From an uncultured Candidatus Saccharibacteria bacterium (lineage in GTDB: Bacteria; Patescibacteriota; Minisyncoccia; Minisyncoccales; PEYH01): a DNA stretch of 44,017 bases. The first letter of the stretch is position 1; each line of letters starts with the position of its first letter. Positions 1,683-42,581 of the stretch are shown here, piece by piece. Under the pieces are notes generated by a model. It did not search any database. It was not told where the DNA came from and saw only the letters and a program-made list of their open reading frames with translations. Made by a program: the position numbers and the translations under genes. The DNA is taken from contig CAYNAD010000001.1 of NCBI GenBank assembly GCA_964395215.1, forward strand, positions 1 through 44,017. The letters run 5' to 3'.

Positions 1683-3785
1683 ATGGGTAAAAAATCAAGA
1701 GCAAAAAGAGAAAGACAGGAAAAAGGGGGAAAGAGCCCTTCTTGTAAAGCAATAGTTTCTCAACCAAAAACTATTGGAGAAGCGATATTACTTTTCTTAG
1801 TTTATGGGGCGACTTATCTGATGGCTCTTACTCCGTTTATCGTTAGATCCCGCTATTTTTTTCCTTACGTAGGGCCAAAAGGCCTGTATTTAATGGGTTT
1901 GATAGAAATAGCGTTTTTTGCTTGGGTGGTTTTGGCATTCTTAAGCCCGAAATATAGGCCCAAAAAGAACGCAGTACTGTTGGCATTGGTTGGCTATATA
2001 ACAATTTTGATTTTAGCTACCTTATTCGGGGCAGATCCTTTACGTAGCTTTTGGTCTAAATTTGAAAGAATGTCTGGCCTTCTAATGTGGCTTCATCTTT
2101 TTGGTTTTTTTATTGTGTCCAGTTCTGTGTTTAAGAGGAAGCATTGGGAAAGGATTTTCCTAACATCTCTTGGGGTCGCAGTATTTATTTGTATTCTCTT
2201 TTTTACAGACACAGACAGCGCGCTTACTGCCAAAGGTGGCTCTACTCTTGGAAATAGCTCTTTCCTAGCCACATATCTTCTTTTTAATATTTATTTTGCC
2301 ATTTATCTTTTTTGCAGTTTTTTGCCGGAAGCAATAAGGAAAATTAAAGCAAAGGAAGAAGCCCTGTCACTTGTGCTGAAAGTAACGCTTGTTGTTACCT
2401 CATTTATTTTTATGCTTGTTGTGTTGGGTTTAAGTAACGGAGACGCAGCCATAATTTCCTGTATCGGAGGATTTGGATTAATTTTTCTTTTTTGGTTTGC
2501 TTTTCAAATTAAAAAATTATGGATTAGAAAGATCGGGAAGATATTGGTGGCTTTAGGATTTATTGTTTATTTCTCAACAGTTTTTCTTTTGCTTTATCCG
2601 GGTAGTTTTCTTCAAACATATTATCTTAATTTCAGAACCGAAGCTCGTCCGATTGTTTGGCAAAATGCTTGGCAGGGCTTTGAAGAAAGACCAATTCTTG
2701 GCTGGGGGCCACAGAATTTTGGTTTTGTGTTTGAGAAAAATTTTGACCCCTGGATTGTTGCCAATGGGAAGCCTAATTTTGACCAAGCTCATAATGTTGT
2801 AATGGATAATTTAGTTGACGCGGGCGCCCTGGGATTTATTGGGTACTTATCTCTTTTTGGTTCTGTTTTCTGGGTTTTGTGGAAAAGGTATCGCAAGAGC
2901 AAACTCGCATTCTGGGCAGCAGCGATTTTCTCTGCTCTCTTGGTTGCTCATTTCACCCAAAACCTTACTGTTTTTGATATGCCTGCCAGTTTCTTGATGC
3001 TATTCTTTGTAATTGGGTTTTCTGGTTCTCTTGCAAGTAGCGATGAAGAGCAGGACGATAAGATTCAGAAAAAACGCATATCTCCTGTAGTGGTAATTTT
3101 GTGTGTTGTACTATTTATGTTTTCTTTTACTTATTTTGTTCGTAAGCCAACCTTGGCTGGACAAGGAGTGGTTCAAACTCTTATTTCGCAGACACACGAC
3201 CAGAGAATGCAGGCATATGAACAGGCACTACATTCTTCACCAACGGGAATATATCAGATTAGAAATCATTTAGCTGGTAGCTTACTTAAGAGAGCTGGAA
3301 AAGGAGATGCTATTGAGGAAGAATTTAGATTTATAAGTCAGGAATTAGAGAAGAGTTTACAATCGTCTCAGTTAGATTATGATAGTCGTCTTGCCTTAGC
3401 CAAACTTTATAACGAATATGGTGTGCGTTATGACCAAACGAAACTTCTACGAGCCGAAGAGATTTTGAGTGAGGCCATTAAATTAAGTTCGACTAACCAG
3501 AGGGCTTATTGGGAAATGTCAAAGACCTATTTTATACTAAATATGCCCGATGAATCAATTTCCTATGCAGAGCAAGCGATTGCCATTGATCCTAATTTAG
3601 CATATTCTCATCTTCTTTATGTTAATGTTTTGAATATTCAAAATAAACATGAATTAGCAATAGAAAAAGCCAAAGAAGCTCTGATGATTGTGCCAGAAAA
3701 TCAAGCGAAAAAAATCCAACCAAGCTTTAAGGAAAATTTAGAAAATATTTTAGGGATTGAAGACTTAGGGGTTGACAAGCAATGA
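1683..3785 (+). CDS. O-antigen ligase (Wzy_C)-like polytopic membrane protein with C-terminal TPR-like repeats
   Basis: 700-aa ORF with many hydrophobic helices. Has the loop motif NFDQAHNVVMDNLVDAGALGFIGY typical of O-antigen ligase-like proteins. The C-terminal ~200 aa is helical-repeat (TPR-like). Confidence 0.7.
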   Translation: MGKKSRAKRERQEKGGKSPSCKAIVSQPKTIGEAILLFLVYGATYLMALTPFIVRSRYFFPYVGPKGLYLMGLIEIAFFAWVVLAFLSPKYRPKKNAVLLALVGYITILILATLFGADPLRSFWSKFERMSGLLMWLHLFGFFIVSSSVFKRKHWERIFLTSLGVAVFICILFFTDTDSALTAKGGSTLGNSSFLATYLLFNIYFAIYLFCSFLPEAIRKIKAKEEALSLVLKVTLVVTSFIFMLVVLGLSNGDAAIISCIGGFGLIFLFWFAFQIKKLWIRKIGKILVALGFIVYFSTVFLLLYPGSFLQTYYLNFRTEARPIVWQNAWQGFEERPILGWGPQNFGFVFEKNFDPWIVANGKPNFDQAHNVVMDNLVDAGALGFIGYLSLFGSVFWVLWKRYRKSKLAFWAAAIFSALLVAHFTQNLTVFDMPASFLMLFFVIGFSGSLASSDEEQDDKIQKKRISPVVVILCVVLFMFSFTYFVRKPTLAGQGVVQTLISQTHDQRMQAYEQALHSSPTGIYQIRNHLAGSLLKRAGKGDAIEEEFRFISQELEKSLQSSQLDYDSRLALAKLYNEYGVRYDQTKLLRAEEILSEAIKLSSTNQRAYWEMSKTYFILNMPDESISYAEQAIAIDPNLAYSHLLYVNVLNIQNKHELAIEKAKEALMIVPENQAKKIQPSFKENLENILGIEDLGVDKQ

Positions 3786-3850
3786 TCTTTTTGATAAGAT
3801 ATAAGTAATTAGTGAGTGTTCCTAAGCTTTGCTTGGAACTCCATAAATCA

Positions 3851-3880
3851 GCAAAAGCCCCTTCGGGGGTTTTTGCTTTT
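3851..3880 (+). terminator. Rho-independent terminator after the ligase-like gene
   Basis: GCAAAAGCCCC-TTCG-GGGGTTTTTGC hairpin followed by a T-run. Confidence 0.8.
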
Positions 3881-3893
3881 ATTTATCTTATAT

Positions 3894-3918
3894 TATGCCC
3901 TTGCGCTATTTTTGACAT
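3894..3918 (+). promoter_or_regulatory. Conserved 25-nt box, copy 1 (TATGCCCTTGCGCTATTTTTGACAT)
   Basis: 23/25 identical to 5751-5775 in the same orientation. Contains TTGCGC and TTGACA hexamers. Confidence 0.5.
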
Positions 3919-4022
3919 ACCAGACCAACGCGACCCGACCTCTTGAAGAGGTTGGGTCGCGGGAGGGGGTCGGTCGGGTCGCAGAGATGATCATTCGGGT
4001 CTTGTTGTGGGGGCTTTGCGAG
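3919..4022 (+). ncRNA. Candidate GC-rich structured RNA element (unassigned family; strand uncertain)
   Basis: Lies in a convergent intergenic gap. GCGACCCGACCTCT (3930-3943) pairs with AGAGGTTGGGTCGC (3947-3960), or alternatively with GGTCGGGTCGC (3972-3982). No T-run follows, so it is not a terminator. The 120-aa ORF over it looks spurious. Confidence 0.3.
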
Positions 4023-4024
4023 TT

Positions 4025-4408
4025 TTATTTAAAAACTAAATTTGCTTTTATTTTTTTTGCTAATGAAAAATCTTTTAACTTCTTTGGTTTATGTTTGAAT
4101 AAATCAAAACCTTTCTCTTCATGTCTTGGGACAAGATGCCAATGGACATGGTTTGATTCATCCATATATATTAAATAAACTTTATTAAGTCGAAGGGTTT
4201 CAAGAAGCGCATTTCTGACAGCAAAAATTGTATCCATCAAATAGTCATAATCCCTATCAGGCAAAAGGTGCAAATCTTTAACTTCTTTTTTCCAAACTAT
4301 AACAGTGTGTCCCTTTACAATAGAATCTATCGCAAGACAAGCATATAAATGTTCATCTTCATATATGATGGATTCTTTTGGGGCAATAGGTAAACTGCTC
4401 ATATTCAA
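4025..4408 (-). CDS. HIT (histidine triad) family nucleotide hydrolase/transferase
   Basis: 127-aa ORF with the histidine-triad motif HVHWHLVPR near the C-terminus. Confidence 0.8.
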   Translation of the reverse strand: MNMSSLPIAPKESIIYEDEHLYACLAIDSIVKGHTVIVWKKEVKDLHLLPDRDYDYLMDTIFAVRNALLETLRLNKVYLIYMDESNHVHWHLVPRHEEKGFDLFKHKPKKLKDFSLAKKIKANLVFK

Positions 4409-4427
4409 TAATCATAACATGCTTAGG

Positions 4428-4464
4428 TAAAAAAAATAGGGGATGACGATAAATCGCCACCCCC
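4428..4464 (-). terminator. GC-rich hairpin terminator downstream of the 387-aa minus-strand gene
   Basis: Plus strand reads GGGGATGACGA-TAAA-TCGCCACCCCC. It is flanked by an A-run on the left, which is a T-run on the minus strand. Confidence 0.7.
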
Positions 4465-4474
4465 TTTTATTGCA

Positions 4475-5638
4475 TCATTGTGATGCTTCTAGCATCGAGA
4501 GTACCAAATCCAGAACCCTTTGTCCCGCCATGTAGTCAGTCTTGGGGAAGTCAGGATTTTTGAGGGTGCAGGTGAGCGTCCGTCTACGAAAACTTTCGCT
4601 TGTGAGTGCTCTTTTTATCAGACTTCTGCAGCCAAGTTTTGTGTATCCCACAGGAATCAATTTCTTTCTAGTGAGAATGAATTTGTCCTGCTCTGCCGAA
4701 AAACCGGGTTGAAGACTGAGACTTGGGCGATTCATATAGATCGCTTCTAAGCCAACAGTACTTCCAGTCATGAACACCGTAGAGCAAAAAGGGATTAATT
4801 CAATAGTGTTTATTTCTTCAGCCAAAACCATTTCTGGGCAGCCTTGAAGAAATCCCCTTATTTCTTTCTTTTCTTGTTTCGGCATTCTGGGATGTAAGGT
4901 TACTATTACTCTGGCAACCTCTTTTTGCTGTGTGGGTAATAAACCCAGAAGCTCAAGGCAAATTAGCCGGATGATGTCCATATCCCAAAATGGTAAGTTC
5001 TGTTCTGACTCTCTGAAGGCGTTGCCAGCATAGAGTGTGATAACTCCGCTGCCCAAGTCTAGTTTTCTTCGGATATCTGCTTCTTGATGACTACTCGCAG
5101 AACGGGCCTTCTCGAGATGGTTATCAAAATAGGGATTTCCTGTAATTACCAACTTGTTTCGAGGAAAACCCTGTTCAACCATTTCTCTTATAGCCAGAAC
5201 ATCCATTACCGCTATCTTGTCGGGCAAGTACTGAAAGCGCTCGCTGGAAAAGATGTCCGAAAATCTCTCAGTGTAGTTGCCCCAGAAATCCAGTACAGCC
5301 AAGGACTGAATTCTTAATTCCTTAGCAGCAAGCGTCAGGGTTTGCTCAATTACTTCCTTTTGGCTTTCTGCCTGTGAACTAGTGCCCGTGAGCACTAAGT
5401 CAGGTTCAACTTTTTGTAGAAGTTGTTTCATCGCAGACAAAGAAACGTCAGAGAGTCCGTAGTCGGCAAGTTCTTTATACACAATTCCGGCTTTAGCAAA
5501 GATAATTTTCGCCGGTGAATTATGTGCAACCACTGTGATTTCGGGTAGCTTTGGGTCTTGCTGAATTTTCCGCAAAACAGGGGCAATAGCATTTGCTGCG
5601 CCCGGATGGCACGCCGTCGCTAGTATCTTCTGGCTCAT
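4475..5638 (-). CDS. Hypothetical protein, GC-richer than its neighbours; possibly a two-Rossmann (GT-B-like) fold enzyme
   Basis: 387-aa ORF with AGGAGG 5 nt upstream of the ATG, plus its own promoter and terminator. Alternating beta-alpha patterns (ILATACHPGAANAIAPV, DLVLTGTS, FMTGSTVGLEAIY) suggest a GT-B/epimerase-like fold. I do not recognise a family. Confidence 0.6.
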   Translation of the reverse strand: MSQKILATACHPGAANAIAPVLRKIQQDPKLPEITVVAHNSPAKIIFAKAGIVYKELADYGLSDVSLSAMKQLLQKVEPDLVLTGTSSQAESQKEVIEQTLTLAAKELRIQSLAVLDFWGNYTERFSDIFSSERFQYLPDKIAVMDVLAIREMVEQGFPRNKLVITGNPYFDNHLEKARSASSHQEADIRRKLDLGSGVITLYAGNAFRESEQNLPFWDMDIIRLICLELLGLLPTQQKEVARVIVTLHPRMPKQEKKEIRGFLQGCPEMVLAEEINTIELIPFCSTVFMTGSTVGLEAIYMNRPSLSLQPGFSAEQDKFILTRKKLIPVGYTKLGCRSLIKRALTSESFRRRTLTCTLKNPDFPKTDYMAGQRVLDLVLSMLEASQ

Positions 5639-7346: not shown

Positions 7347-8006
7347 ATGAAAGAACAAGAGCTTTTAGCAATATTGGCAACAGTAGTCGGAGCAGTACTT
7401 TTGGCTATTGCGGTTATACTTTCGGGAGGCGAAGTTGTAGTTCAAGGAGAATTTGTTTTACCTGTGGTGCTGGTTCAGTCCAACATTCTACCAGTTGCCG
7501 AGTTCATTTTTTCCTCGGACACTAATGCCGACGACGGTGTTGTCCGTTTCTCTGGAATTTCGTATGACCCGGACGGTTATATTGTGGACAGCACATGGAG
7601 CCTTGGAGACGGAACCCGAGGCGTCAAGGGTGACAGAATCGGTCATACCTATGCCGTAAGTGGCGTTTACACAGTGACTTTGACTGTTACCGACAATATG
7701 GGCGCTACAGATTCCAAGAGTAAACAAGTGGGTGCCTTCGTCAACCGCGGTCCGCATGCTCAGTTTACTGGAACGGTTAGTCGTTGCACCGGAGCCTATG
7801 CGTTATTGGAACTTGATGCGTCATCGTCATGGGACGATGGTTATATCGTGGGTTATCGTTGGTTCCAAAACGGCGAGGAATTGCCACGGTCCGGCGCACA
7901 AAAATCAATCTGGGTAACGTGTCGATCCACTTACAATATTGTCTTGATTGTGACGGACAATAATGGACGGCAAGATGATGCCTGCAGATTGATCTATGCA
8001 CCATGA
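7347..8006 (+). CDS. Secreted or membrane-anchored protein with two PKD-like Ig-fold domains
   Basis: 219-aa ORF with AGGAGG 7 nt upstream and an N-terminal hydrophobic helix. PKD signature WSLGDGTRG..HTYAVSGVYTVTLTVTDNMGATD, and a second degenerate PKD-like repeat. GC-richer than the core genes. Confidence 0.75.
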   Translation: MKEQELLAILATVVGAVLLAIAVILSGGEVVVQGEFVLPVVLVQSNILPVAEFIFSSDTNADDGVVRFSGISYDPDGYIVDSTWSLGDGTRGVKGDRIGHTYAVSGVYTVTLTVTDNMGATDSKSKQVGAFVNRGPHAQFTGTVSRCTGAYALLELDASSSWDDGYIVGYRWFQNGEELPRSGAQKSIWVTCRSTYNIVLIVTDNNGRQDDACRLIYAP

Positions 8007-8134: not shown

Positions 8135-8851
8135 ATGACTAAGAGAATTGTAGTAGCGGTAGCTGTGTCGGCTATGTTGATGATTTTTCTTTGTGGTTGT
8201 GAATTGATTCAGGGCTTTTTGCCCGGGCTTGTCCCAGAAGCTGTCATCAACATTACAGAAACACACCTTCAGCCAGGCAAGTCCGTCCCAGTGTCGGCAG
8301 AAGGATCAATGAGCCCCAGTGGGAATGCATTAACGAAGTTTATTTGGAACTTCGGCGATGGAACAGGCGAGATGGTTTCCCCTAACCCTTCCCATTCCTA
8401 TCAGAGAGGTGGTAGCTATACTATCACATTGGTAGTAGTAGACGATTTGGGATTACGCAGTAATCCAGCCACTATTCTGGTTACTGTCAACCATCGTCCT
8501 GTCCTTATAGGATTTCTAGAGGAGCTCACTGATTTTCCGAGTGGACAGGGATTCTATTGCATTCTAGATGGGCAAGTGATTTATCCCAATGCTAAGACTG
8601 GACCACTAGGGATTATCTCAGCAGTGCGTTACACATACTGGAAAATTGACTCTTCGTCTTCTTCTGATCCTGATGGATGGATTGTCTCTCGATACTTGAG
8701 TTGGTCAGGTCGTGACTTCGAAATCGGTCAAATTGATTATTTCGCGGTTCCAGCAGATGGAGATATTTATAGGAACCTGGGACTTACCCTGATCGACAAC
8801 GAAGGATTGAAGAACACTATATACTACGACGTAACCAGTCCTATTGGTTAG
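8135..8851 (+). CDS. Putative lipoprotein with PKD-like domains
   Basis: 238-aa ORF with a GGAGAGG SD. Signal peptide with a lipobox-like LCGC. PKD signature WNFGDGTGE..HSYQRGGSYTITLVVVDDLGL. Confidence 0.75.
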   Translation: MTKRIVVAVAVSAMLMIFLCGCELIQGFLPGLVPEAVINITETHLQPGKSVPVSAEGSMSPSGNALTKFIWNFGDGTGEMVSPNPSHSYQRGGSYTITLVVVDDLGLRSNPATILVTVNHRPVLIGFLEELTDFPSGQGFYCILDGQVIYPNAKTGPLGIISAVRYTYWKIDSSSSSDPDGWIVSRYLSWSGRDFEIGQIDYFAVPADGDIYRNLGLTLIDNEGLKNTIYYDVTSPIG

Positions 8852-12101: not shown

Positions 12102-12755
12102 ATGAGGAAAATCAAATTCGTAAATGGAGAATATTATCATATATTAAATCGCGGAGTAGATAAGCGGAATATTTTTCTTGATAAAGAAGACTTAAGAAGA
12201 TTTATTCAAGGATTGCAGGAATTTAATACACTTGATCCAATTGGTAGTATTTACGAATCTCAACTTCGTAAAAAGCATAACGAAAATGGAAACCTGGTTT
12301 CCACGAGAGATGATTCAAAGATTGTAGATTTCATCTGCTATTGTATAAATCCGAATCATTATCATTTTATCTTAGTGCAACTTTCAGATAATGGAATAAG
12401 AAAATTTATGCAACGGATAGCACTTGGGTATTCAAAATATTTTAATCTGAAATATAAAAGAAGTGGAACTTTATTTCAGGGTCCATATAAGGCAACTCAT
12501 ATTGATTCAAATGATTATTTGCTTCATGCGAGCGCTTATATAAATTTAAACAACAAAGTTCATGGATTAGAAAATGTACTTTATAAATCTAGTTGGGGAG
12601 AATATTGTCAAGATAATTATAAGGGGATAGCTTTTTGTAAGAAAGATATTATACTAAAACAATTTTTAAATTCGGATGAATATAAGAGTTTTGCAGAAGA
12701 ATCATTGAAATCTATTCACGAAAGAAAGGAATTAGAAAAATTATTGTTAGATTAA
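12102..12755 (+). CDS. IS200/IS605-type HUH (Y1) transposase-like protein, REP-associated tyrosine transposase (RAYT)-like
   Basis: 217-aa ORF with N-terminal YHILNRGVDKRNIF, the HUH motif NHYHFIL, and a C-terminal catalytic-Tyr region SAYINLNN. Confidence 0.75.
   Translation: MRKIKFVNGEYYHILNRGVDKRNIFLDKEDLRRFIQGLQEFNTLDPIGSIYESQLRKKHNENGNLVSTRDDSKIVDFICYCINPNHYHFILVQLSDNGIRKFMQRIALGYSKYFNLKYKRSGTLFQGPYKATHIDSNDYLLHASAYINLNNKVHGLENVLYKSSWGEYCQDNYKGIAFCKKDIILKQFLNSDEYKSFAEESLKSIHERKELEKLLLD
12285..12309 (+). repeat. REP-like palindrome, copy 2, inside the RAYT-like CDS
   Basis: AATGGAAACCTGGTTTCCACGAGAG, read in frame as ENGNLVSTR. Confidence 0.8.
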
Positions 12756-13755: not shown

Positions 13756-15114
13756 ATGCAAAAGCAATATTATAAATTAATAAGTATTGGGGTGATAATC
13801 TTAGCCATAGTAGCGGCTGTTTTTGTTCAGCCGAGTTTTTTTAATAAAGGGATTGATTTTGTTAATCAGAAACTTAGTTGGGGAGTGCCTCATATTCAGG
13901 GAAAGGAATTTATGCTCGGTCTAGATTTACAGGGAGGAGTAGAACTCTTATACGAGGCAGACTTATCTGATCTTGATCCAGAAGCGCATAGCCAAGCAAT
14001 GAATGGTTTAAGAGATGTAATAGAGAGGAGAATTAATACTTTAGGGGTGCGTGAACCAGAGGTGGAAGCAGTTATATCTGGCGATACCTATCGCTTAAAA
14101 GTAAGAATCCCCGGTATTACCGACCCCCAGGAAGCGATTAAAGAAATAGGCAGAACTCCCTATCTAGAGTTTCAGGAATTAAAAAAAGATTATGAAGAAA
14201 TTCAAGAGAGAAATCAAGAAGTAGAAGTAACAGGAGAAGGTGAGATTGAAGCATTGTTTCAACCGACAGAACTTACTGGTCGCTATTTGAAAGGAGCAGG
14301 AATTGCCTTTGATCAGACCACTAATCAGCCATATATTACTCTTGAATTTAATGAGCAGGGAGCAATAATTTTTGAAGAAATAACAGGAAGGAATATTGAG
14401 AAGCCCATAGCCATATTTATAGATGGAGAGGTTTTGTCTGCTCCTAATGTTAGTCAAAGGATAACTGGTGGCACTGCTCAAATTACAGGAGAATTTACTA
14501 CCGAAGAGGCAAAATTTTTAGCCCGCAACCTTAACGCTGGCGCTTTGCCAGTACCTATTGGCGAACCAATATCTATGGTCACAGTAGGTCCGACTCTGGG
14601 AATGATTTCTCTGCAAAAGAGCTTAAAAGCCGGATTTTTCGGCTTTTTAGCAGTCATTATTTTTTTAATAATTATTTACCGTTTGCCTGGGCTATTAGCT
14701 TCTATCGCTCTCTTAATTTACGGAGTTTTACTTTTAGCATTATTTAAGCTCGGCTCTTTCACTCTCACCTTATCAGGGATTGGTGGTTTCATATTATCCT
14801 TAGGCATGGCTGTAGATGCTAATATTTTGATATTCTCTAGAATGAGAGAAGAGATTAGAAGCGGAAAAGATCTCGCCTCATCAGTTGACGAGGGCTTTAA
14901 AAGGGCTTGGCCTTCTATAAGGGACGGTAATCTTACTACCCTAATTGTGGGTTTGATTCTTTTTGGTGTGGGCACGAGTTTTGTCCAGGGCTTTGCTATT
15001 ACTTTATGTTTAGGTATTTTAATAAGTATGTTTTCTGCAGTGTTTATCAGCAGGAGCTTTCTTGTTGTCTTGGCTCAAACCAGATTAAGTAAAATTAATA
15101 AACTTTGGCTTTAA
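13756..15114 (+). CDS. secD: Protein translocase subunit SecD
   Basis: 452-aa ORF with the periplasmic domain motif LGLDLQGGVELLYEAD and a C-terminal 6-TM SecD/F domain. Confidence 0.9.
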   Translation: MQKQYYKLISIGVIILAIVAAVFVQPSFFNKGIDFVNQKLSWGVPHIQGKEFMLGLDLQGGVELLYEADLSDLDPEAHSQAMNGLRDVIERRINTLGVREPEVEAVISGDTYRLKVRIPGITDPQEAIKEIGRTPYLEFQELKKDYEEIQERNQEVEVTGEGEIEALFQPTELTGRYLKGAGIAFDQTTNQPYITLEFNEQGAIIFEEITGRNIEKPIAIFIDGEVLSAPNVSQRITGGTAQITGEFTTEEAKFLARNLNAGALPVPIGEPISMVTVGPTLGMISLQKSLKAGFFGFLAVIIFLIIIYRLPGLLASIALLIYGVLLLALFKLGSFTLTLSGIGGFILSLGMAVDANILIFSRMREEIRSGKDLASSVDEGFKRAWPSIRDGNLTTLIVGLILFGVGTSFVQGFAITLCLGILISMFSAVFISRSFLVVLAQTRLSKINKLWL

Positions 15115-16268
15115 TGATGGAAAATTATTATCTCACAGCTGAATCGGTAACCCCCGGCCATCCTGACAAAGTAGCAGATGCAATTTCAGATGCTGTTTTA
15201 GATAAAGTTTTGGAGCAAGATAAGTCCGGCAGAGTGGCTTGCGAGGTTTTAGTTGGCAGGGGCTATGTTGTGGTTAGCGGAGAAATTACTACTACTGGAT
15301 ATGTTGATATTCAGGAGATATCAAGGGAAACGATTAAGAAGATTGGATACACAAAACCAGAATACGGATTTGATTTCAGGACTGTAGCTGTTTTTAATGT
15401 AATAAATGAACAGTCTCCGGATATTGCTCAAGGAGTGAAAGAAACAGGAGCCCAGGAGCAGGGCGCAGGTGACCAAGGATCTATGATTGGATATGCGAGC
15501 AAAGAGACAAAGGAATTAATGCCTCTTCCTATAAGTTTAGCTCATAAATTAGTAAAACAGCTTGTGAAAGTAAGAGAAGAAAAAGTTATTCCTTATTTAA
15601 GGCCTGATGGGAAATCCCAAGTCATTATTGAGTATCAGGATAATAAGCCAAAAAGATTGGATTCCGTGATTATCGCAGCCCAGCATGATCCTGATGTGGA
15701 AGCAGAAAAAATTCAGCAAGATATTATTGCTGAAGTTATCAAACCGATCTGCTCATCCCTACTGGATAATGACACAAAATATTATATCAATAACACTGGC
15801 CGTTTTGTAATCGGTGGCCCTGTGTCTGATACTGGTATGACTGGCAGGAAAAATGTGGTTGACGCTTATGGTCCACAGATACCAACCGGCGGAGGAGCTT
15901 TTTCCGGAAAAGATCCAACTAAAGTAGACAGGTCTGCCGCTTATATGGCAAGATATATTGCTAAAAATATTGTAGCCACTGATTTGGTTGAGAATTGTAA
16001 AGTAGAATTATCTTATGCAATTGGAAGCTCGGAGCCTGTTTCAATCAATATTCAGACCAATAAGCCCGAATTAGACGAGAAATTTATTAAGATAGTGCCA
16101 CAAGTATTTGATTTAACTCCAGCCGGCATTATTAAAGAATTAAACCTTTTAGAGCCGATTTATTCAAAAACGACTTGCTTTGGGCATTTCGGAAGAGAAG
16201 ATAATGGTTTTAACTGGGAGAAGAAGGATAAAACAGAAAAATTAATTCAGGCATTAAATTCAGTATGA
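15114..16268 (+). CDS. metK: S-adenosylmethionine synthetase
   Basis: Motifs ESVTPGHPDKVADAISDAVLD, GAGDQGSMIGYA and GGGAFSGKDPTKVDRSAAY. I prefer the ATG at 15114, which overlaps the secD stop (TAATG), over the TTG at 15105 used by the track. Confidence 0.95.
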   Translation: MMENYYLTAESVTPGHPDKVADAISDAVLDKVLEQDKSGRVACEVLVGRGYVVVSGEITTTGYVDIQEISRETIKKIGYTKPEYGFDFRTVAVFNVINEQSPDIAQGVKETGAQEQGAGDQGSMIGYASKETKELMPLPISLAHKLVKQLVKVREEKVIPYLRPDGKSQVIIEYQDNKPKRLDSVIIAAQHDPDVEAEKIQQDIIAEVIKPICSSLLDNDTKYYINNTGRFVIGGPVSDTGMTGRKNVVDAYGPQIPTGGGAFSGKDPTKVDRSAAYMARYIAKNIVATDLVENCKVELSYAIGSSEPVSINIQTNKPELDEKFIKIVPQVFDLTPAGIIKELNLLEPIYSKTTCFGHFGREDNGFNWEKKDKTEKLIQALNSV

Positions 16269-17170
16269 AATTTCCATTTTTAAAATACAGTAAAGTTTAT
16301 TTTTCTTTTTCCCTGATTTTGGCTGTTTTAAGTATTGCAGCTGTATTGGTTTTTGGCTTGAACTGGGGGATTGAGTTTGTGGGTGGCAGTGTTTTAGATG
16401 TTTCATATAGTACAACAGAGATTCGCCCAAGCCAGCAGGAAATAATTTCTGAATTAGAGAAAATCGGTTTAGACAATTTTTCAGTTCGCTTAAGCGGAGA
16501 TTATGGTATAGCGATGAGAATACCAGAAGTGTCTCAAGATATGAAAGACAAGGTATTATATTATTTTTATAATGCCGAGGGGGTAGAAAAAGAGAAGATC
16601 GGGCTTGAGTCCGTGAGTCCGGTTATTGGAGGAGAGACCAAAACTAAAGCCATAAACGCTATATTATATGCTGTGATTGCCATTGTTATTTATGTTGCTG
16701 TTGTTTTTAGGAAGGTTTCTAAACCTATAAAATCCTGGCAATATGGTATTGCGACCGTAATTGCTCTTATGCATGATGTTTTAATTCCAGTCGGGGCGTT
16801 GGCTATACTTGGTCATTTCGCCGGTGTGGAATTTTCTATTCCTATTTTAACCGCGCTTTTAACAATTTTTGGCTATTCAGTAAACGACACAGTTGTTGTT
16901 TTTGATAGAATCAGGGAGAATCTTATAATAGGGAAAGGAGAAACTTTTGATCAAGTTATTGACGAAAGCTTAAATCAAACTGTTGTTCGTTCTATTAATA
17001 CCTCTTTAACAACTCTTTTCGTGCTTTTAGCTCTATTTTTCTTTGGCGGGCAGAGCTTAAACTGGTTTTCTTTTGCTCTAATTATCGGAACTATTGCCGG
17101 TACCTATTCTTCAATATTCTTAGCAAGCACTTTATTGGCAAAGTGGTTGGCATTTTCCCACAGATCTTAA
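16265..17170 (+). CDS. secF: Protein translocase subunit SecF
   Basis: 301-aa ORF with motifs GIEFVGGSVL and SVNDTVVVFDRIREN. Its ATG overlaps the metK stop (ATGA). Confidence 0.9.
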   Translation: MKFPFLKYSKVYFSFSLILAVLSIAAVLVFGLNWGIEFVGGSVLDVSYSTTEIRPSQQEIISELEKIGLDNFSVRLSGDYGIAMRIPEVSQDMKDKVLYYFYNAEGVEKEKIGLESVSPVIGGETKTKAINAILYAVIAIVIYVAVVFRKVSKPIKSWQYGIATVIALMHDVLIPVGALAILGHFAGVEFSIPILTALLTIFGYSVNDTVVVFDRIRENLIIGKGETFDQVIDESLNQTVVRSINTSLTTLFVLLALFFFGGQSLNWFSFALIIGTIAGTYSSIFLASTLLAKWLAFSHRS

Positions 17171-17171
17171 C

Positions 17172-17200
17172 TTGACATAGAAATGGTTAAGTGCTTTAAT
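17172..17200 (+). promoter_or_regulatory. Sigma-70-type promoter
   Basis: TTGACA-17 nt-TTTAAT, immediately after the secF stop. Confidence 0.6.
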
Positions 17201-17235
17201 AGATAAACTTGTGAAAATTATTAAATTTTAGGAAA

Positions 17236-18237
17236 ATGTTGAATTATCAAACAATTTGTCAAGAAATCTTACAAGACCTTGAACCAAGAAAGCGAGAGGT
17301 TTTAGAAAAAAGATTTGGTTTGATAAATGAAGACCCCTTAACACTTCAAGCAATTGGTGATGAATTGAAAATTACCAGAGAAAGAGTTCGTCAGATAGAA
17401 AATGACGCTCTTTTGTGGTTGAGAAACAAGAAAAGCCAGACACTAGACAAGCCACTTAAGAGCATTTCTGATCATCTTGATGGTTATGGTGGTTTAAGAG
17501 AAGAAACTATGTTACTTCAAGAATTGGGCGAAGATAAATTTCAAAATCATGTCCTACTTTTTCTAAGCTTAGGAGATGATTTTACGAAATTTAAGGAGAC
17601 AGACGATTTTTTCACCCTTTGGGCGGTTCAAGAAGAAAAATTAAATCAAGCTAAGAAAGTGATAGAAAATCTAATCAAAGAATTAGAAAAACGAAATGAT
17701 TTAATAGAACCAAAAGAGCTGGAGAAGAAAACTCCTTCTGAAGTTGGAGAGTCAGTCCTTATTTCCTATATTGATATTTCTAAAAATATTTTCAAATCAC
17801 CTTTTGGTTATTATGGTTTGGCTCATTGGCCCGAAGTAAGACCAAGGGGCTTAAGAGACAATGCTTATTTGGTTCTCAAGAAAGAAGATAAGCCATTGCA
17901 TTTTAGAGATATTACTAAATTAATTGGAGAACTGCCAGATAGCTCAGGCGCGGTTTTATCAGAAAGTGTCCACAACGAGCTTATAAGAAATGATAATTTT
18001 GTTTTAATCGGCAGAGGCATTTATGCTCTGAAAGAATGGGGTTATAATCCAGGCACTGTTAGAGAGGTGATAGCTGATGTTTTAAGAACATCTAAAAGTT
18101 CGCTCACAAAAGATCAAATTCTTAAAAAGGTGCTTAAACAAAGGGATGTCAAAGAAAGCACAGTGTTTTTAAATTTACAGAACAAAGAATATTTCAGCAA
18201 AGACAAGAAGGGGAGATATACAGTAGCTAAAAGCTAG
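17236..18237 (+). CDS. Sigma-70 region-4-only HTH protein with a C-terminal HARE-HTH-like domain
   Basis: N-terminal LEPRKREVLEKRFGLINEDPLTLQAIGDELKITRERVRQIENDALLWLR is a textbook sigma region 4.2, and regions 2/3 are absent. The C-terminus (HFRDITKLIGE...FVLIGRGIYALKEWGY) resembles the HARE-HTH of the RNAP delta subunit. Confidence 0.6.
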   Translation: MLNYQTICQEILQDLEPRKREVLEKRFGLINEDPLTLQAIGDELKITRERVRQIENDALLWLRNKKSQTLDKPLKSISDHLDGYGGLREETMLLQELGEDKFQNHVLLFLSLGDDFTKFKETDDFFTLWAVQEEKLNQAKKVIENLIKELEKRNDLIEPKELEKKTPSEVGESVLISYIDISKNIFKSPFGYYGLAHWPEVRPRGLRDNAYLVLKKEDKPLHFRDITKLIGELPDSSGAVLSESVHNELIRNDNFVLIGRGIYALKEWGYNPGTVREVIADVLRTSKSSLTKDQILKKVLKQRDVKESTVFLNLQNKEYFSKDKKGRYTVAKS

Positions 18238-18292
18238 AGCTTTAGCTAAACTCTAATCTCAATTTTCAATTTTCAATTAGAAACTAGTTTTA

Positions 18293-19594
18293 ATGTCTTT
18301 CATATCCTCAATTCTTATCCCTATATGGGCGATTCTCGAGGTCTGGTGGTGGGCCTTGCTTCCAATTCTATTATGGAGGCCTCTTAAGTTTCTTTGGTAC
18401 TTTTGGGGCAATGACAGGTTTTCAAAAGGGGAAGGCAAAACCATGATTTTGGAGCTCAAGATGCCCGCTGAAGTCGATAGACCCTTTAAGGCAATGGAAC
18501 AAGTTTATGCCGGGCTTTGGATGCTTTATGACCCAGCTGATTTTTATGAAAAATGGGTTGAAGGCAAATATGATGCCTCTATGTCAATAGAGATTGTGAG
18601 CATTGGAGGCAATATCCGTTTTTATTTAAGATTTCCCAAAAAAGCAAGAAATTTAATTGAATCAAGTATTTATTCTCAATATCCAGAAGTAGAAATATCG
18701 GAAGTGGAAGATTATACTAAAGATGTTCCAAAAGATATTCCTAATAAAAAATGGGATTTATGGGGTACTGATTATGAGTTTATTAAAAAGGATATTTATC
18801 CAATAAAGACCTACCCTAAATTTTTTGAAGAAAGAGCTGTTCAAGAAGAAACAGAACGAATAGATCCGCTTGCTGCTTTGCTTGAAGGGCTTAATAAGAC
18901 AGGTCCAGGCGAACAAATATGGGTACAATTTAAGTTCAAACCGATTACTGTTGGAGAAGATGATTACAATAAACGCGCAGAGGCAGAAATCGGTAAGTTG
19001 GCAAATAGGCCAGGTGAAAAGAAAAGACCACTGATGCTCAAAGAGGCAACAGATGTTGTGTTATTGGGCCAATTGCCGGCCGGAAGCGGGGATGACAAAA
19101 AACAAGAATCCTTTTTGCCTCCGGAAATGAAATTAACTCCAGGGGAAAGAGATGTAGTTTCTGCTATTGAGCACAAAGTATCAAAAGTAATGTTTAAGGG
19201 ACATATAAGATTCATTATTTTGGGGGAAAGAGATAAATGGAACAAAGGTAATTTGAGAAATGTGTTAGGATATTTTGCCAATTTTAATACTCAAGATCTT
19301 AATGCATTAAAGCCATGGCCTAAGAGTTTGACTAAGATTCATAAACACGAACGGTTTTTTCTGAATATGTTTGTTCATAAGACATTAGTATTTTATAAAA
19401 AGCGAAAACTTTTAAAAAGATATATTCAACGCTTACGTTATAATTTCCCAAAAAAGGGGGAGGAATTTATATTAAATATTGAAGAGCTGGCTACTATGTT
19501 TCATTTCGTGGGCAGAACCGCTGTTCCTGCACCAAGTATTAAGAGAGTTGAAGCTAAAAAGAGCGAGCCACCAGTTAATTTACCAGGAGAATAA
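18293..19594 (+). CDS. Hypothetical membrane-anchored protein, partner of the downstream ATPase
   Basis: 433-aa ORF with a Trp-rich N-terminal hydrophobic segment (FISSILIPIWAILEVWWWALLPILLW) followed by a soluble domain. Its stop overlaps the next ATG (TAATG). Confidence 0.7.
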   Translation: MSFISSILIPIWAILEVWWWALLPILLWRPLKFLWYFWGNDRFSKGEGKTMILELKMPAEVDRPFKAMEQVYAGLWMLYDPADFYEKWVEGKYDASMSIEIVSIGGNIRFYLRFPKKARNLIESSIYSQYPEVEISEVEDYTKDVPKDIPNKKWDLWGTDYEFIKKDIYPIKTYPKFFEERAVQEETERIDPLAALLEGLNKTGPGEQIWVQFKFKPITVGEDDYNKRAEAEIGKLANRPGEKKRPLMLKEATDVVLLGQLPAGSGDDKKQESFLPPEMKLTPGERDVVSAIEHKVSKVMFKGHIRFIILGERDKWNKGNLRNVLGYFANFNTQDLNALKPWPKSLTKIHKHERFFLNMFVHKTLVFYKKRKLLKRYIQRLRYNFPKKGEEFILNIEELATMFHFVGRTAVPAPSIKRVEAKKSEPPVNLPGE

Positions 19595-21366
19595 TGTCTA
19601 CAAAGGAGGATAATGTTACATTTTTAGGGAGAACTAATTTTAGAAATGTCCAAAAAAAGTTTGGCATTAAATTAGATGATAGAAGAAAACATGTATACAT
19701 TATCGGTAAGACGGGAATGGGCAAGACAACCCTTTTGGCGAATATGGCTGCCCAAGACATTCAGGACGGATTTGGTGTGGCTTTTATTGATCCTCATGGG
19801 GAACAAGCAGAAGCGCTGTTAGACTATGTTCCAAAAGAGAGAGTAAAAGATGTTGTTTATTTTAATCCTTCAGATATTAAATTTCCGATTGGATTTAATA
19901 TTATGGAGGTTAAAGATCCGGACATTCGGCATCTTATTGCCTCTGGATTAATGGGCGTGTTCAAAAAGATTTGGCCTGATGTTTGGTCTGCTAGGATGGA
20001 ATATATTTTAAACAATTCTATTTTAGCTCTACTTGAATATCCTGGCTCTACTTTACTCGGCATCAACAGGATGATGGCGGATGTGGATTACAGGAAGAAA
20101 GTTATTGATAAGGTGATGGATCCCGTTATTAAGGCCTTCTGGACCCAAGAATTTGCTCGCTATACTCAAAGATATGAAGTTGAGGCAACAGCAGCTATTC
20201 AGAATAAAATAGGTCAATTCATTTCCAATCCCCTGATTAGAAATATTCTTGGCCAAACCAATTCCTCAATTAGCATGAGGGATATAATGGACGAGAAAAA
20301 GATTTTGATAGTCAACTTGTCAAAAGGAAGAATGGGCGAAGCGAATTCTATGCTTTTAGGTGCTTTGGTCATTACAAAGCTTTACTTAGCCGCTATGTCC
20401 CGAATTGATATTAAAGAAGAAGAAAGAAAAGATTTTTTTCTTTACGTTGACGAGTTTCAGAATTTTGCTACTGAATCATTCGCCAGTATATTGTCTGAAG
20501 CTAGGAAATACCGACTTTGTTTAATAATGGCTCATCAATATATTACTCAAATGGAAGAGATGGTTAGGGATGCTGTTTTTGGAAATGCAGGCACTATTAT
20601 TAATTTTAGAATTGGAGCTGAAGACGGAGAATATTTAGAGAAAGAATTTGCTCCCGTTTTTGCAGTGGGGGATTTTGTAAATCTTCCAAAGTTTAATATT
20701 TATATAAAGCTTATGATTGACGGGGTGGCAGGCCGACCGTTTTCTGCTGAAACCCTGCCACCGATACCAAAGCAAGAGCATTCTCTAAGAGAGGAAATTA
20801 TTCAAAACTCGCGGGATAAATATGCAGTAAAAAGAGAGCTTATAGAAGAGGAAATTTCAAGATGGGCTACAATGGATACTGCGGGGACAAAACCGAATAA
20901 AAATAATAAAAGAGATAATAATAGATATAGTCAGGATAGTCGAAAGAAAAATAATCAGAATAGTCAGAATAATCAGAATAGTCAGAATAGTCAGAATAGT
21001 CAGAATAGCCAAAATAAAGATAATAGAGACGATCGCAATAGGAATAGCGGAGATAACCGAAGTAAAAGTAATCATGAAGTTAAGATAACTTCTCCGCAGG
21101 AAAAAATTGTTAAAACTATTTCTTTGGAGGATGCCACGAAAAAAGAACCAATATTTTTTAGCGCTCATCATAAGAATAATAAAAATAACCATCATCGTCC
21201 CAAAGAAAAAATTGATACTGGTGGTTTAAAAGAAGCAATCAAAGATGCTTTAGAAAATAGAGAGAATAAGGGTCATAAAATAGAGAATCAGAAAAATGAA
21301 AAAACATTGCAAGAGAAAGGAGAAAAAGGGTATCTAAAGCCGGGACAAAAAATTAGTTTTGATTAA
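19594..21366 (+). CDS. VirD4/TraG/TraD-type or HerA-like (DUF87/AAA_10-like) P-loop NTPase with a low-complexity C-terminal tail
   Basis: 590-aa ORF with Walker A GKTGMGKTT (aa 38-46), FIDPHGE, Walker B FFLYVDEFQNF and SEARKYRLCLIMAHQY. No N-terminal TM helices. The last ~170 aa are N/K/R/D/Q/S-rich. Confidence 0.7.
   Translation: MSTKEDNVTFLGRTNFRNVQKKFGIKLDDRRKHVYIIGKTGMGKTTLLANMAAQDIQDGFGVAFIDPHGEQAEALLDYVPKERVKDVVYFNPSDIKFPIGFNIMEVKDPDIRHLIASGLMGVFKKIWPDVWSARMEYILNNSILALLEYPGSTLLGINRMMADVDYRKKVIDKVMDPVIKAFWTQEFARYTQRYEVEATAAIQNKIGQFISNPLIRNILGQTNSSISMRDIMDEKKILIVNLSKGRMGEANSMLLGALVITKLYLAAMSRIDIKEEERKDFFLYVDEFQNFATESFASILSEARKYRLCLIMAHQYITQMEEMVRDAVFGNAGTIINFRIGAEDGEYLEKEFAPVFAVGDFVNLPKFNIYIKLMIDGVAGRPFSAETLPPIPKQEHSLREEIIQNSRDKYAVKRELIEEEISRWATMDTAGTKPNKNNKRDNNRYSQDSRKKNNQNSQNNQNSQNSQNSQNSQNKDNRDDRNRNSGDNRSKSNHEVKITSPQEKIVKTISLEDATKKEPIFFSAHHKNNKNNHHRPKEKIDTGGLKEAIKDALENRENKGHKIENQKNEKTLQEKGEKGYLKPGQKISFD
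20956..21018 (+). repeat. In-frame 9-bp tandem repeat (CAGAATAGT)n encoding (QNS)n
   Basis: Seven consecutive units (six near-identical plus a degenerate last one, CAAAATAAA) within the ATPase tail. Confidence 0.9.
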
Positions 21367-21386
21367 CAATTTTTAAGAGGTATAAT
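21359..21386 (+). promoter_or_regulatory. Sigma-70-type promoter placed for a leaderless pgk transcript
   Basis: TTGATT-16 nt-TATAAT, with the -10 box ending 7 nt before the pgk ATG. No SD is present. Confidence 0.5.
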
Positions 21387-21393
21387 AATAATA

Positions 21394-22557
21394 ATGAAAG
21401 ATATCAAAGATTTCCAATTTTACGAGAAAAAAGTTCTTGTTAGAGCTGATTTTAATGTACCCATTCATAATGGCAAAATTTTGGATGATTTTAAAATTAT
21501 AAAATCTCTGCCCACAATTAAATATTTAAAAGAACAAGGAGCTAAAATTATTTTGATAAGTCATTTGGGCAGGCCTCAAGAAGGTGAAAAAGTTAGCTTA
21601 AGCCCAATAGCTGTAAAATTAGAAGAATTGCTTGAGTGTAAAGTGAATTTCATTAATGATTGTGTTGGCAGGGGAGCACAAAAGGCAGTAAATAAAATGG
21701 TTTCCGGAGATATCGTTTTACTTGAAAACTTGAGGTTTTTTGCTGGAGAGGAACAGAACGATGAGGTCTTTGCAAAACAACTAGCCAACTTGGCTGAAAT
21801 CTATATCAACGACGCTTTTGCCTGTAGCCATAGGGAACATGCCTCAATTGTAGGCGTTCCAAAGTTATTGCCAAGCGCAGCAGGATTTTTATTGAAAGAG
21901 GAAATTACCACCCTGTCTTCAGTTATAAAGAATCCAAAGCGACCATTAATAGCGATTTTTGGAGGCGCAAAACTTGAAACAAAATTACCCTGCTTATTGA
22001 ATTTTTTAAAAAAATCAGATCATTTGATTATCGGCGGGATGCTAGCACCCGTAATTTTAGCTATTAAAAAGATAGCTATCAGCGGTCAACATTTCAATGA
22101 GGAACTGGAAGAGAAAGTTAGAAGCATTGAGCTGACAAATCCAAAATTTCATATGCCCATTGACGCGCTAGTTGGTTTGAGAGATCACAAGGTAGACTAT
22201 TTAAGACAGTCAGCTGTTGGTAATATTAGAAGCGAAGAGCAAATGTTTGATATTGGGCCTGAAAGTGTGAGGATTTTTTCTGACATTATTAAGGAGGCAG
22301 GTACAATCATTTGGAATGGTCCTCTTGGTTTTATAGAAGATGAAAGATTTGCTAACGGGACATTATCTATAGCAAATGCTATTTTAAGGAATTCTGCTTT
22401 TTCAGTTGTGGGCGGAACTGACACAGATAGTTTTTTAGCTAAAAATAATTTAAGGGAAAAATTTGGATATGTATCCACTGGTGGAGGCGCGATGCTAGAG
22501 TTTTTAAGTGGAGAAGAATTTCCCGGAATAAAGGCATTGGATTCAGAAAATGAATAA
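21394..22557 (+). CDS. pgk: Phosphoglycerate kinase
   Basis: 387-aa ORF with motifs RADFNVP, ISHLGRP and GGGAMLEFL. Confidence 0.95.
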   Translation: MKDIKDFQFYEKKVLVRADFNVPIHNGKILDDFKIIKSLPTIKYLKEQGAKIILISHLGRPQEGEKVSLSPIAVKLEELLECKVNFINDCVGRGAQKAVNKMVSGDIVLLENLRFFAGEEQNDEVFAKQLANLAEIYINDAFACSHREHASIVGVPKLLPSAAGFLLKEEITTLSSVIKNPKRPLIAIFGGAKLETKLPCLLNFLKKSDHLIIGGMLAPVILAIKKIAISGQHFNEELEEKVRSIELTNPKFHMPIDALVGLRDHKVDYLRQSAVGNIRSEEQMFDIGPESVRIFSDIIKEAGTIIWNGPLGFIEDERFANGTLSIANAILRNSAFSVVGGTDTDSFLAKNNLREKFGYVSTGGGAMLEFLSGEEFPGIKALDSENE

Positions 22558-38072: not shown

Positions 38073-38095
38073 TTTCAATTATTGAAATATTTATT

Positions 38096-42505: not shown

Positions 42506-42581
42506 AATATAGAGAAAAGACAGAATAAAGATTCCGCATATTAGGGGATTTTTGTTTTCAATTTTCATATCTGCATATATA

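Follow-up and report, generated by a model that had tools for sequence, protein, structure and literature searches.

Type IV coupling proteins (T4CPs), such as TrwB of plasmid R388, VirD4, DotL/IcmO and Cag-beta, combine a P-loop ATPase domain with an inserted all-alpha domain, and the canonical members carry an N-terminal transmembrane (TM) domain in the same chain. VirB4 of type IV secretion systems (T4SSs; TrwK in R388), taken together with VirB3, provides a membrane helix, an alpha/beta N-terminal domain of about 350 aa and a RecA-like ATPase. For plasmid pIP501 it was proposed that the coupling protein TraJ, which has no TM domain, is held by a separate membrane protein, TraI (PMC12857230). 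In the Patescibacteria, T4CP-like genes were found in 2,918 of 3,035 genomes and VirB4 in 2,417 of them, with 148 of the 5,713 T4CP-like copies located near virB4 (PMC12102498). Here we describe two overlapping genes, A and B, from a chromosomal contig of an uncultured bacterium of this phylum (CAYNAD010000001.1, positions 1 to 44,017). This 44-kb stretch, which is probably the entire contig, is referred to as the window and is the genomic context considered for this bacterium. Gene A encodes a DUF8128 protein, and gene B encodes a T4CP-like ATPase without TM helices (Table 1).

A and B are two halves of one protein architecture. This is supported by their adjacency in related genomes, which persists where the flanking genes have changed, and by collinear single-chain relatives. 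We consider it probable that the two proteins form a split ATPase machine of the VirB4/VirD4 superfamily (type IV secretion), working as outlined below. An earlier note, made from the letters of the window, had proposed a membrane anchor and a TM-less VirD4-like motor acting as one unit, and this view is supported by our data. The same note had called the genes an orphan, minimal stand-alone translocation device. For this description we found no support; in Patescibacteria it is the rule that T4CP-like genes lie far from virB4, and most genomes of the phylum encode VirB4.

Table 1. Positions of genes, domains and motifs of the A-B pair and the upstream gene in the window.
Feature	Position	Strand	Basis
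Gene A, 433-aa DUF8128 protein, putative membrane-anchored adaptor half	18293..19594	+	ORF; PF26449; AF2 model
A, Trp-rich hydrophobic N-terminal helix (residues 1-45), predicted membrane anchor	18293..18427	+	hydropathy, model, family conservation
A, DUF8128 globular domain (residues ~50-406), two predicted alpha/beta subdomains	18440..19510	+	AF2 model, Foldseek, hhalign
A, C-terminal tail (residues 407-433), ends P-P-x-N-L-P	19511..19591	+	pLDDT 52-56; conserved sequence
Gene B, 590-aa TM-less T4CP-like (TrwB/VirD4-type) P-loop ATPase, putative motor half	19594..21366	+	ORF, Pfam, Foldseek
TAATG stop/start overlap; TAA of A 19592-19594, ATG of B 19594-19596	19592..19596	+	one common base, 19594
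B, Walker A GKTGMGKTT (residues 38-46)	19705..19731	+	motif; invariant residues
B, predicted all-alpha insertion (residues ~109-233) in the nucleotide-binding domain	19918..20292	+	AF2 model, Pfam span
B, Walker B FLYVDEFQNF (282-291) and ARKYRL..AHQ (303-315)	20437..20538	+	motifs; invariant residues
B, C-terminal tail (residues 426-590): variable N/K/Q/S-rich linker, then three conserved short motifs	20869..21363	+	composition, alignment
B, tail motif ISLEDATKKEPIFFS	21118-21162	+	kept in relatives
B, tail motif KIDTGGLKEAIKDAL	21208-21252	+	kept in relatives
B, tail motif GYLKPGQKISFD, terminal	21328-21363	+	kept in relatives
SigH, 333 aa: sigma-70 region 4 helix-turn-helix (residues 12-63) and HARE-HTH (208-268)	17236..18237	+	Pfam Sigma70_r4 1.5e-15, HARE-HTH 3.3e-6

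Two halves of one architecture

We compared 83 related loci from species-level genomes by tblastn and clustering of open reading frames (ORFs). In 75 of the 79 loci with enough downstream sequence, A was directly followed by B with a median spacing of 14 nt; conserved adjacency was one of the checks suggested in the earlier note. The pair was kept where pgk and the DHH-family gene downstream, or secDF upstream, were replaced by other genes (efp, mnmA, alaS). Closer relatives share the gene order secA-secD-secF-SigH-A-B-pgk, in which SigH is the sigma-like gene treated below, and retain much of the order from secA to murJ. The core of B showed a median identity of 68%, compared with 40-52% for A, SigH, SecD, SecF, PGK and the DHH protein, and B was the most conserved protein at every locus compared. 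In the window the two ORFs are in different frames and share a single base within the junction sequence GAGAATAATGTCT.

Outside the Patescibacteria, the closest relatives that we found are single proteins from Bacillota, both halves of which are homologous to and collinear with A and B. These fused forms of about 800-911 aa, with the A-like half preceding the B-like half, are encoded by Bacillus and Clostridium plasmids and by Bacillus phages. In phrog_5156 (824 profile positions), the function of which is listed as unknown in PHROGs, A matched positions 78-307 (E-value 1.3e-7) and B positions 406-813 (8e-61). In gp156 of Bacillus phage G (825 aa), residues 17-322 were aligned to the A profile by hhalign (probability 98.3%, E-value 1.8e-14), and residues ~372-755 matched B with 26% identity (2e-37). 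The corresponding regions of an 885-aa protein from a 27.5-kb B. subtilis plasmid (WP_345805471.1, NZ_CP154917) are residues 54-305 for A (probability 98.4%, 4e-15) and residues 326-721 for B (1e-38). Structure searches agreed with these assignments: the A model matched Gp156 among predicted viral structures (BFVD) with an E-value of 5e-17, and a 913-aa protein of phage JL was found at 6e-14. Further fused genes are present in SPO1-like phages (CP-51 gp91), Geobacillus phages and C. botulinum plasmids (pCLJ, WP_012720238.1). Judging from domain offsets, fused forms seem to exist in Saccharimonadia too.

The fused proteins of Bacillota differ from the pair in being single chains with about 26% identity to B and no N-terminal membrane helix (in gp156, a hydrophobic segment is instead found internally, near residue 183), and in being borne on plasmids or phages beside a Replic_Relax nickase/relaxase. 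On NZ_CP154917 the fused gene heads an operon and is followed by a Replic_Relax relaxase, TcpC (VirB8-like), VirB4 (AAA_10, 847 aa), further conjugal-transfer genes and a lytic transglycosylase/peptidase (cell-wall hydrolase). No other ATPase capable of acting as a T4CP is annotated among the listed features of this plasmid, the gene table in PLSDB being incomplete. Thus, the gene order in this complete set of Gram-positive T4SS genes places the fused family where the coupling protein of a conjugation system is usually encoded. A Replic_Relax gene likewise comes after the fused gene of phage CP-51. Plasmid pLS20 was considered as a model for the Bacillus plasmid and rejected, as it has a canonical VirD4 with two TM helices (gene 48) that is not adjacent to the relaxase.

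Phage G encodes a second related protein, Gp155, which is VirB4-like by sequence (AAA_10, P-loop_TraG) and was matched by the A model at 1.4e-7. The genes gp155 (L085:1223-2869) and gp156 (2888-5362) of this jumbo phage encode adjoining ATPases, one VirB4-like and one a fused T4CP-like protein, with a common fold resembling DUF8128 and the N-terminal domain of VirB4.

B represents a coupling-type ATPase in a split form. The earlier note had listed both ORFs with their TAATG overlap, the motifs GKTGMGKTT, FIDPHGE, FLYVDEFQNF and ARKYRL..AHQ in B, the absence of TM helices from B and a Trp-rich hydrophobic N-terminus in A, and all of these were confirmed. The motif residues of B, FIDPHGE being residues 64-70, are invariant in 63 homologues, among them G38, K39, T40, G41, G43 and K44 as well as D286, E287, R304, K305, Y306, R307, H314 and Q315. 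No TM-like segment was detected in B by Kyte-Doolittle analysis, the best 19-aa window (1.57) lying within the ATPase core, and 67 of 68 B-family proteins remained under the Wimley-White threshold that every SecD/F control passed. In Pfam, B matched TrwB_AAD_bind over residues 28-323 (1.9e-13; 50.5 bits with a cut-off of 20.5) and, also above threshold, DUF87 (1e-9) and TraG-D_C (1.7e-5), which is the outcome of the profile searches that the note had suggested for B. A sequence search of the PDB returned DotL/IcmO and TrwB as the only relatives.

The AlphaFold2 (AF2) model of B has a predicted local distance difference test (pLDDT) score of 87.1. Its best Foldseek matches are TrwB and DotL (E-value 2e-11, TM-score about 0.6 (0.61-0.63)), followed by HerA (8e-11, TM-score 0.52), Cag-beta and the C-terminal domain of VirB4 (4ag5, 1.5e-8). 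In the predicted structure, eight helices between strands 87-90 and 237-241 form an all-alpha insertion at the position of the all-alpha domain of T4CPs and inside the TrwB_AAD_bind match. B thus shares with T4CPs the P-loop domain, the inserted all-alpha domain and the two Pfam families TrwB_AAD_bind and TraG-D_C. Unlike canonical T4CPs, it has no N-terminal TM domain in the chain, the putative anchor being provided by the separate protein A, and it is paired with a DUF8128 domain, which T4CPs lack. Moreover, it is chromosomal, nearly universal in the phylum and free of relaxase or T4SS neighbors among the scanned ORFs of the window and the annotated genes of 80 related loci. The linkage to a relaxase and a T4SS that is typical of T4CPs was seen exclusively for the fused homologue of the B. 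subtilis plasmid. By domain criteria, B would largely be classified as a T4CP-type ATPase that is devoid of two defining features of the canonical proteins.

Other ATPase families fit B less well. Together, A and B have the layout of VirB4 with VirB3, i.e. a membrane helix, an alpha/beta domain and a RecA-like ATPase, with a length of about 820-900 aa in the fused forms. In contrast to VirB4, however, A has no sequence similarity to CagE_TrbE_VirB or TrwK, the ATPase of B is of the T4CP type (no match to AAA_10 or P-loop_TraG, with T4CP profiles scoring best) and two genes are involved; on the B. subtilis plasmid, the fused homologue is accompanied by a bona fide VirB4 that is encoded separately. 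B matches DUF87 and HerA structures, but the fit is poorer than to TrwB. Its model begins directly with the ATPase strands and has no HAS-barrel, and no NurA, Sir2 or DUF4297 partner was found in the window. The motor-domain match, the gamma domain and the multi-TM N-terminus of FtsK/SpoIIIE are all missing from B: FtsK_SpoIIIE was not matched in Pfam at E-values up to 0.1, and FtsK was outside the top 50 structural matches.

For gene A, no match was obtained in the copies of Pfam and NCBIfam that we searched, because the PF26449 model is absent from that copy of Pfam and not because A is an orphan. A precomputed match to PF26449 (DUF8128) is given for the database entry with the same sequence as A and for most homologues of this protein. 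Hence, the large domain that had been regarded as unassignable can be assigned to DUF8128, with a predicted fold like that of the VirB4 N-terminal domain. No mention of DUF8128 was found in the literature searched. The family comprises 1,754 homologues at 90% clustering, or 1,683 clusters at 50% identity, and relatives are present in at least 580 species-representative genomes. Apart from a few apparently mislabeled bins, the named matches belong to Patescibacteria lineages (Parcubacteria, Nealsonbacteria, Moranbacteria and others).

A contains no P-loop. The N-terminal segment reaches a maximum of 1.85 on the Kyte-Doolittle scale (19-aa window) and forms a helix at residues 2-45 in the AF2 model. 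A hydrophobic N-terminal segment is present in 83 of 83 members of the A family and equals that of SecD/F controls in strength on the Wimley-White octanol scale; among the soluble controls (PGK, DHH, SigH and B), such strength was reached by just one of 68 B-family proteins. Presumably, A is oriented with its N-terminus outside and its C-terminus inside, so that the DUF8128 domain would be cytoplasmic. In the fusions without an N-terminal helix, DUF8128 is in one chain with a cytoplasmic ATPase, and therefore the domain itself should be located in the cytoplasm. Lys and Arg residues following the hydrophobic segment of A agree with this location.

In the AF2 model of A (pLDDT 87.7, predicted TM-score 0.83), the long N-terminal helix is followed by two alpha/beta subdomains, and the C-terminal tail is poorly ordered. 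In a Foldseek search of the PDB, the ten best matches were all full-length TrwK/VirB4 chains of plasmid R388 (E-values 1e-6 to 2e-4, probability 1.0, TMq 0.32-0.40), and the next match was three orders of magnitude weaker. VirB4 structures restricted to the C-terminal domain (4ag5), TrwB and HerA were not matched by the model in this search. Since full-length but not C-terminal chains were found, the matched part must be the N-terminal domain of VirB4, which is not the ATPase. This implies that the predicted fold of the DUF8128 domain resembles the N-terminal domain of VirB4. At the sequence level, nothing relevant was found when A alone or a 73-sequence A profile was compared with PDB sequences, and no family recurred when 73 diverse members were searched against Pfam at E-values up to 10. 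The match at rank 11 of the structural search (E-value 2e-3, 217 columns) was 6umm_A, a chain of 285 residues from the ESX-3 (type VII) translocon of mycobacteria; this chain may likewise be a membrane-anchored protein accessory to an FtsK-like ATPase.

The tail of A is conserved, with invariant or nearly invariant residues including G407, R408, A413, P414, R418, E420, K422, E425, P427, L430 and P431. The motif P-x-N-L-P stays at the extreme C-terminus even in homologues in which long low-complexity linkers are inserted before it. In the fused protein of B. subtilis, the sequence DPNLTIP is located immediately ahead of the first ATPase strand. Judging from these sequences, the tail probably tethers A to B and would be the remnant of an interdomain linker, where a single gene was divided or, alternatively, two genes were joined into the fusions.

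The C-terminal tail of B had been described earlier as a stretch of about 170 N/K/R/D/Q/S residues that could bind nucleic acid. The composition holds for the N/K/Q/S-rich linker, which includes a 9-bp tandem repeat at 20927-21016 (ATAGTCAGA, 10.3 copies) coding for an N-S-Q run. The tail is not purely of low complexity, however, as it also contains three conserved motifs (Table 1). The repeat could have been made by slippage, resulting in a linker of variable length. In most relatives of B, the ATPase core is followed by a treble-clef zinc finger of the form CxxC-x17-CxxC (PF23477). In the alignment, the linker takes the place of this zinc finger in the window and its closest relatives, which makes it a lineage-specific feature; the single Cys of B is located in the core. 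For the three motifs, docking to a partner appears likelier than a generic function in nucleic-acid binding. The same C-terminal PF23477 zinc finger occurs in a family of proteins of about 570 aa without a Pfam ATPase domain. The corresponding gene lies downstream of B in locus L051 (9499-11211) and directly after A in locus L053, where B was not found.

The sigma-like gene and the surroundings of the pair

The gene directly upstream of A, here called SigH, combines sigma-70 region 4 with a HARE-HTH domain and has no sigma region 2. Of 80 related loci, 76 have it directly ahead of A, among them some from which secDF is missing. SigH may therefore be the third member of a module that had been taken for a two-gene unit, and we regard it as a conserved partner or regulator of A-B. 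The possibility that SigH is a disguised Replic_Relax relaxase was rejected, as hhalign revealed no similarity.

A similar order of genes exists in Southlakia epibionticum (class Saccharimonadia). SEML1_0294 (Sigma70_r4 at 27-72, HARE-HTH at 225-283) is followed on the same strand by SEML1_0293, which differs from the pair in being one ATPase protein of 921 aa (TrwB_AAD_bind at 402-719 within a P-loop domain at 361-795; also TraG-D_C/DUF87). SEML1_0294 is annotated as RpoS. In transposon sequencing (Tn-seq), SEML1_0294 was essential and SEML1_0293 non-essential in co-culture (all PMC10633639). The same genome encodes a second T4CP-type protein, the essential SEML1_0142 (1,019 aa, with a TraM-recognition domain and an FtsK-like P-loop domain at 381-800; PMC10633639). 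The small gene preceding it (SEML1_0141) is likewise essential, in contrast to the non-essential homologue of the B type.

The window contains housekeeping genes, namely secA, secD, metK, secF, pgk, the DHH-family gene, rnhA, RNase P RNA, murJ, lepA, prfB, ftsEX and xseA. This agrees with the core-gene context described before, in which secF and pgk had been named as the neighbors; the gene directly upstream is SigH, however, and not secF. GC content is even across the window, and the A-B pair resembles its surroundings in this respect. VirB4, VirB6, relaxase, pilin and integrase had been reported as absent from the 44 kb, and indeed none of them was matched by Pfam among the scanned ORFs of the window; the scan did not extend to seven ORFs with lengths of 100 aa or more (3816-4178, 4025-4408, 37650-38072, 38015-38536, 39631-40185, 41807-42505 and 42552-43679). 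A scan of 17100-21500 for promoters and terminators gave no signals above shuffled expectation and hence no operon boundaries.

Several other features of the region may be mentioned. An ORF with an IS200-like Y1 transposase domain (12102-12755, 217 aa) is located between a NUDIX gene and secD, 5.5 kb upstream of the pair. Homologous ORFs occur in two related genomes (L012, L043) elsewhere in the same syntenic block, between pgk and the DHH gene, and the differing positions suggest a mobile or recently moved element. Gene metK (15105-16268) separates secF from secD, the end of which it overlaps; this insertion was seen in some of the related loci only (L007, L008, L012, L025, L026 and L043). 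Upstream of secA, two adjoining genes (7347-8006 and 8135-8851) encode small PKD-domain proteins, which are likely surface proteins. Among the related loci L004-L083, many are titled 'uncultured Candidatus Saccharibacteria bacterium' (TPA_asm bins) and have a gene order of the Paceibacteria type with split A and B. One related locus is titled Gammaproteobacteria and one Pacearchaeota; such labels look unreliable.

Proposed mechanism and competing explanations

In the split machine that we consider probable, A would reside in the cytoplasmic membrane with the DUF8128 domain facing the cytoplasm. By this domain and the C-terminal P-x-N-L-P tail, it would hold B at the membrane. B presumably forms a ring, like its relatives TrwB, HerA and VirB4, and, driven by ATP, would recruit nucleic acid or nucleoprotein as the most likely substrate and push it toward a membrane channel. 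The leading candidate for this channel is the VirB4-based T4SS, the genes of which are located elsewhere in the genome in most Patescibacteria, because the fused relatives are found in a conjugative context and because the VirB4-like fold predicted for A could dock to the inner-membrane complex of a T4SS. TraI-TraJ of pIP501, in which a soluble ATPase is likewise proposed to be held by a separate membrane protein, may by analogy serve as the functional precedent that comes closest to an anchor encoded by a gene of its own. TraI differs from A, since it is small, has two TM helices and no DUF8128 or VirB4-like domain, and is encoded on a plasmid inside the tra operon (PMC12857230). With respect to the copies counted in the survey of the phylum, roughly one of the T4CP-like copies in each genome probably belongs to the B type, given the two profile classes, t4cp1 and t4cp2, in its table (PMC12102498).

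A number of observations weigh against this explanation, some of them in particular against a coupling function of the pair in a T4SS. In four of the 79 loci, A is not directly followed by B. The likeness of A to the N-terminal domain of VirB4 is one of predicted structure with TM-scores of 0.32-0.40; it is missed by sequence profiles, and hhalign of the A profile with R388 TrwK was not significant (E-value 0.14). With regard to the coupling function, no T4SS genes are present among the Pfam-scanned ORFs of the window or among the annotated neighbor genes of the 80 related loci. In the phylum, T4CP-like genes are more widespread than VirB4 (96% compared with 80% of the genomes; PMC12102498). 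Finally, the T4SS genes of S. epibionticum are essential, whereas the T4CP-like SEML1_0293 is not (PMC10633639), so that Tn-seq, which the earlier note had suggested as a check in a culturable relative, is available from published work but indicates a dispensable homologue. In this case, the assignment has to be read with caution, since SEML1_0293 is apparently a fused homologue with an A-like (DUF8128) N-terminus according to the ~374-aa offset of its ATPase relative to B. Its dispensability could be reconciled with a role in coupling if the essential role of the T4SS, e.g. pilus assembly, needs no coupling ATPase. In Agrobacterium, VirD4 is dispensable for pilus biogenesis.

Alternatively, the A-B motor could work without a T4SS and import DNA or host RNA via ComEC or another conduit, thereby filling the role of ComFA in the competence of Gram-positive bacteria. 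The com genes conserved across phyla of the candidate phyla radiation are ComEC, DprA and ComFC, with ComFA unmentioned in PMC10633639, and in S. epibionticum the com genes are non-essential like SEML1_0293 (PMC10633639). There, dprA (SEML1_0298) is five genes away from SEML1_0293, and in loci L060, L074 and L076 efp, mnmA and an unknown gene separate B from a ComEC gene (Competence and DUF4131), the fourth gene downstream. The excess of T4CP-like genes over VirB4 also speaks for this reading, and the route of host-RNA uptake in a cultivated Patescibacterium has been stated to be unresolved (bioRxiv 10.64898/2026.06.21.733656). The neighborhood links to com genes are few and loose, however. 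Furthermore, the closest characterized context of a fused homologue is export by conjugation, beside a relaxase, and known T4CPs push their substrates outward. We therefore regard import as unlikely.

Likewise, it is improbable that A-B together with SigH act in housekeeping on the cell's own DNA at the membrane, e.g. in segregation, clearance of dimers or anchoring of transcribed DNA, after complete exaptation from a conjugative ancestor. Such a role would suit the conserved housekeeping order in which the pair is embedded, the conservation of B above that of PGK, SecD and SecF, and the constant link to a protein of a DNA- or RNA polymerase-binding type that is essential in S. epibionticum; the survey authors state that exaptation of T4CP-like genes cannot be ruled out (PMC12102498). 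On the other hand, the apparent homologue SEML1_0293 is dispensable, and B has neither the gamma domain nor the Pfam match of FtsK. A replacement of FtsK by B was rejected: an ftsK gene is annotated in TM7x, and S. epibionticum possesses the separate, essential FtsK-like SEML1_0142, and therefore no missing FtsK needs to be replaced, which counts against a housekeeping role.

That the pair is a decaying, functionless remnant of an integrated conjugative element or prophage is very improbable. The fused homologues on plasmids and phages of Bacillota and the IS200-like ORF upstream might point in this direction, but the pair occupies the same genomic position in dozens of species-level genomes, its catalytic residues are all invariant, B is the most conserved protein of the neighborhood, GC content is like that of the surroundings and neither integrase nor repeats flank the genes. 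The earlier note had argued against a remnant of an integrative conjugative element or plasmid as well. A functional independence of A and B, with adjacency as a mere consequence of the general synteny of the lineage that extends from secA to murJ in closer relatives, is hardly credible, as the pair survives where both flanks have changed and both halves are collinearly fused in unrelated replicons of another phylum. Both of these explanations are contradicted by the conservation and fusion data.

Implications for Patescibacteria

Patescibacteria are ultra-small, host-dependent organisms and represent a large part of bacterial diversity. In the only species for which this was tested, the T4SS proved essential, and no coupling protein was recognized in that gene cluster; the role of the nearly universal T4CP homologues of the phylum was left open by the survey of 2025. 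It was already public that Patescibacteria have T4CP homologues and that Pfam lists DUF8128. In the literature searched, we found neither the pairing of DUF8128 with a T4CP-like ATPase nor the likeness of the DUF8128 fold to the N-terminal domain of VirB4, nor the fusions with their coupling-protein position, nor the conserved sigma-like neighbor. The present analysis places the homologue of the window in a two-gene unit with a DUF8128 partner and offers a first structural assignment for DUF8128, as a predicted VirB4-N-terminal-like fold. It links the pair to proteins of SPO1-like phages and to fused relatives whose genes take the place of the coupling protein in a conjugation cluster of Gram-positive type, and identifies a conserved sigma-like partner gene. 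With SEML1_0293 and SEML1_0294, a directly testable target is available in the genetically tractable S. epibionticum.

A bolder proposal, which we consider unlikely, is that DUF8128 proteins and their T4CP-like ATPases are a third branch of T4SS ATPases that became fixed in Patescibacteria as a core, T4SS-independent motor for the import of nucleic acid from the host or the environment. If this were true, such a branch, with a VirB4-type N-terminus and a VirD4-type motor, may record an origin of coupling proteins from VirB4. An import motor would also be the engine that competence, or the recently described feeding on host RNA in this phylum, is lacking. Irrespective of import, the split machine that we favor, if its hybrid architecture of a VirB4 N-terminus and a VirD4 motor is real, would bear on the divergence of the two families of T4SS ATPases.

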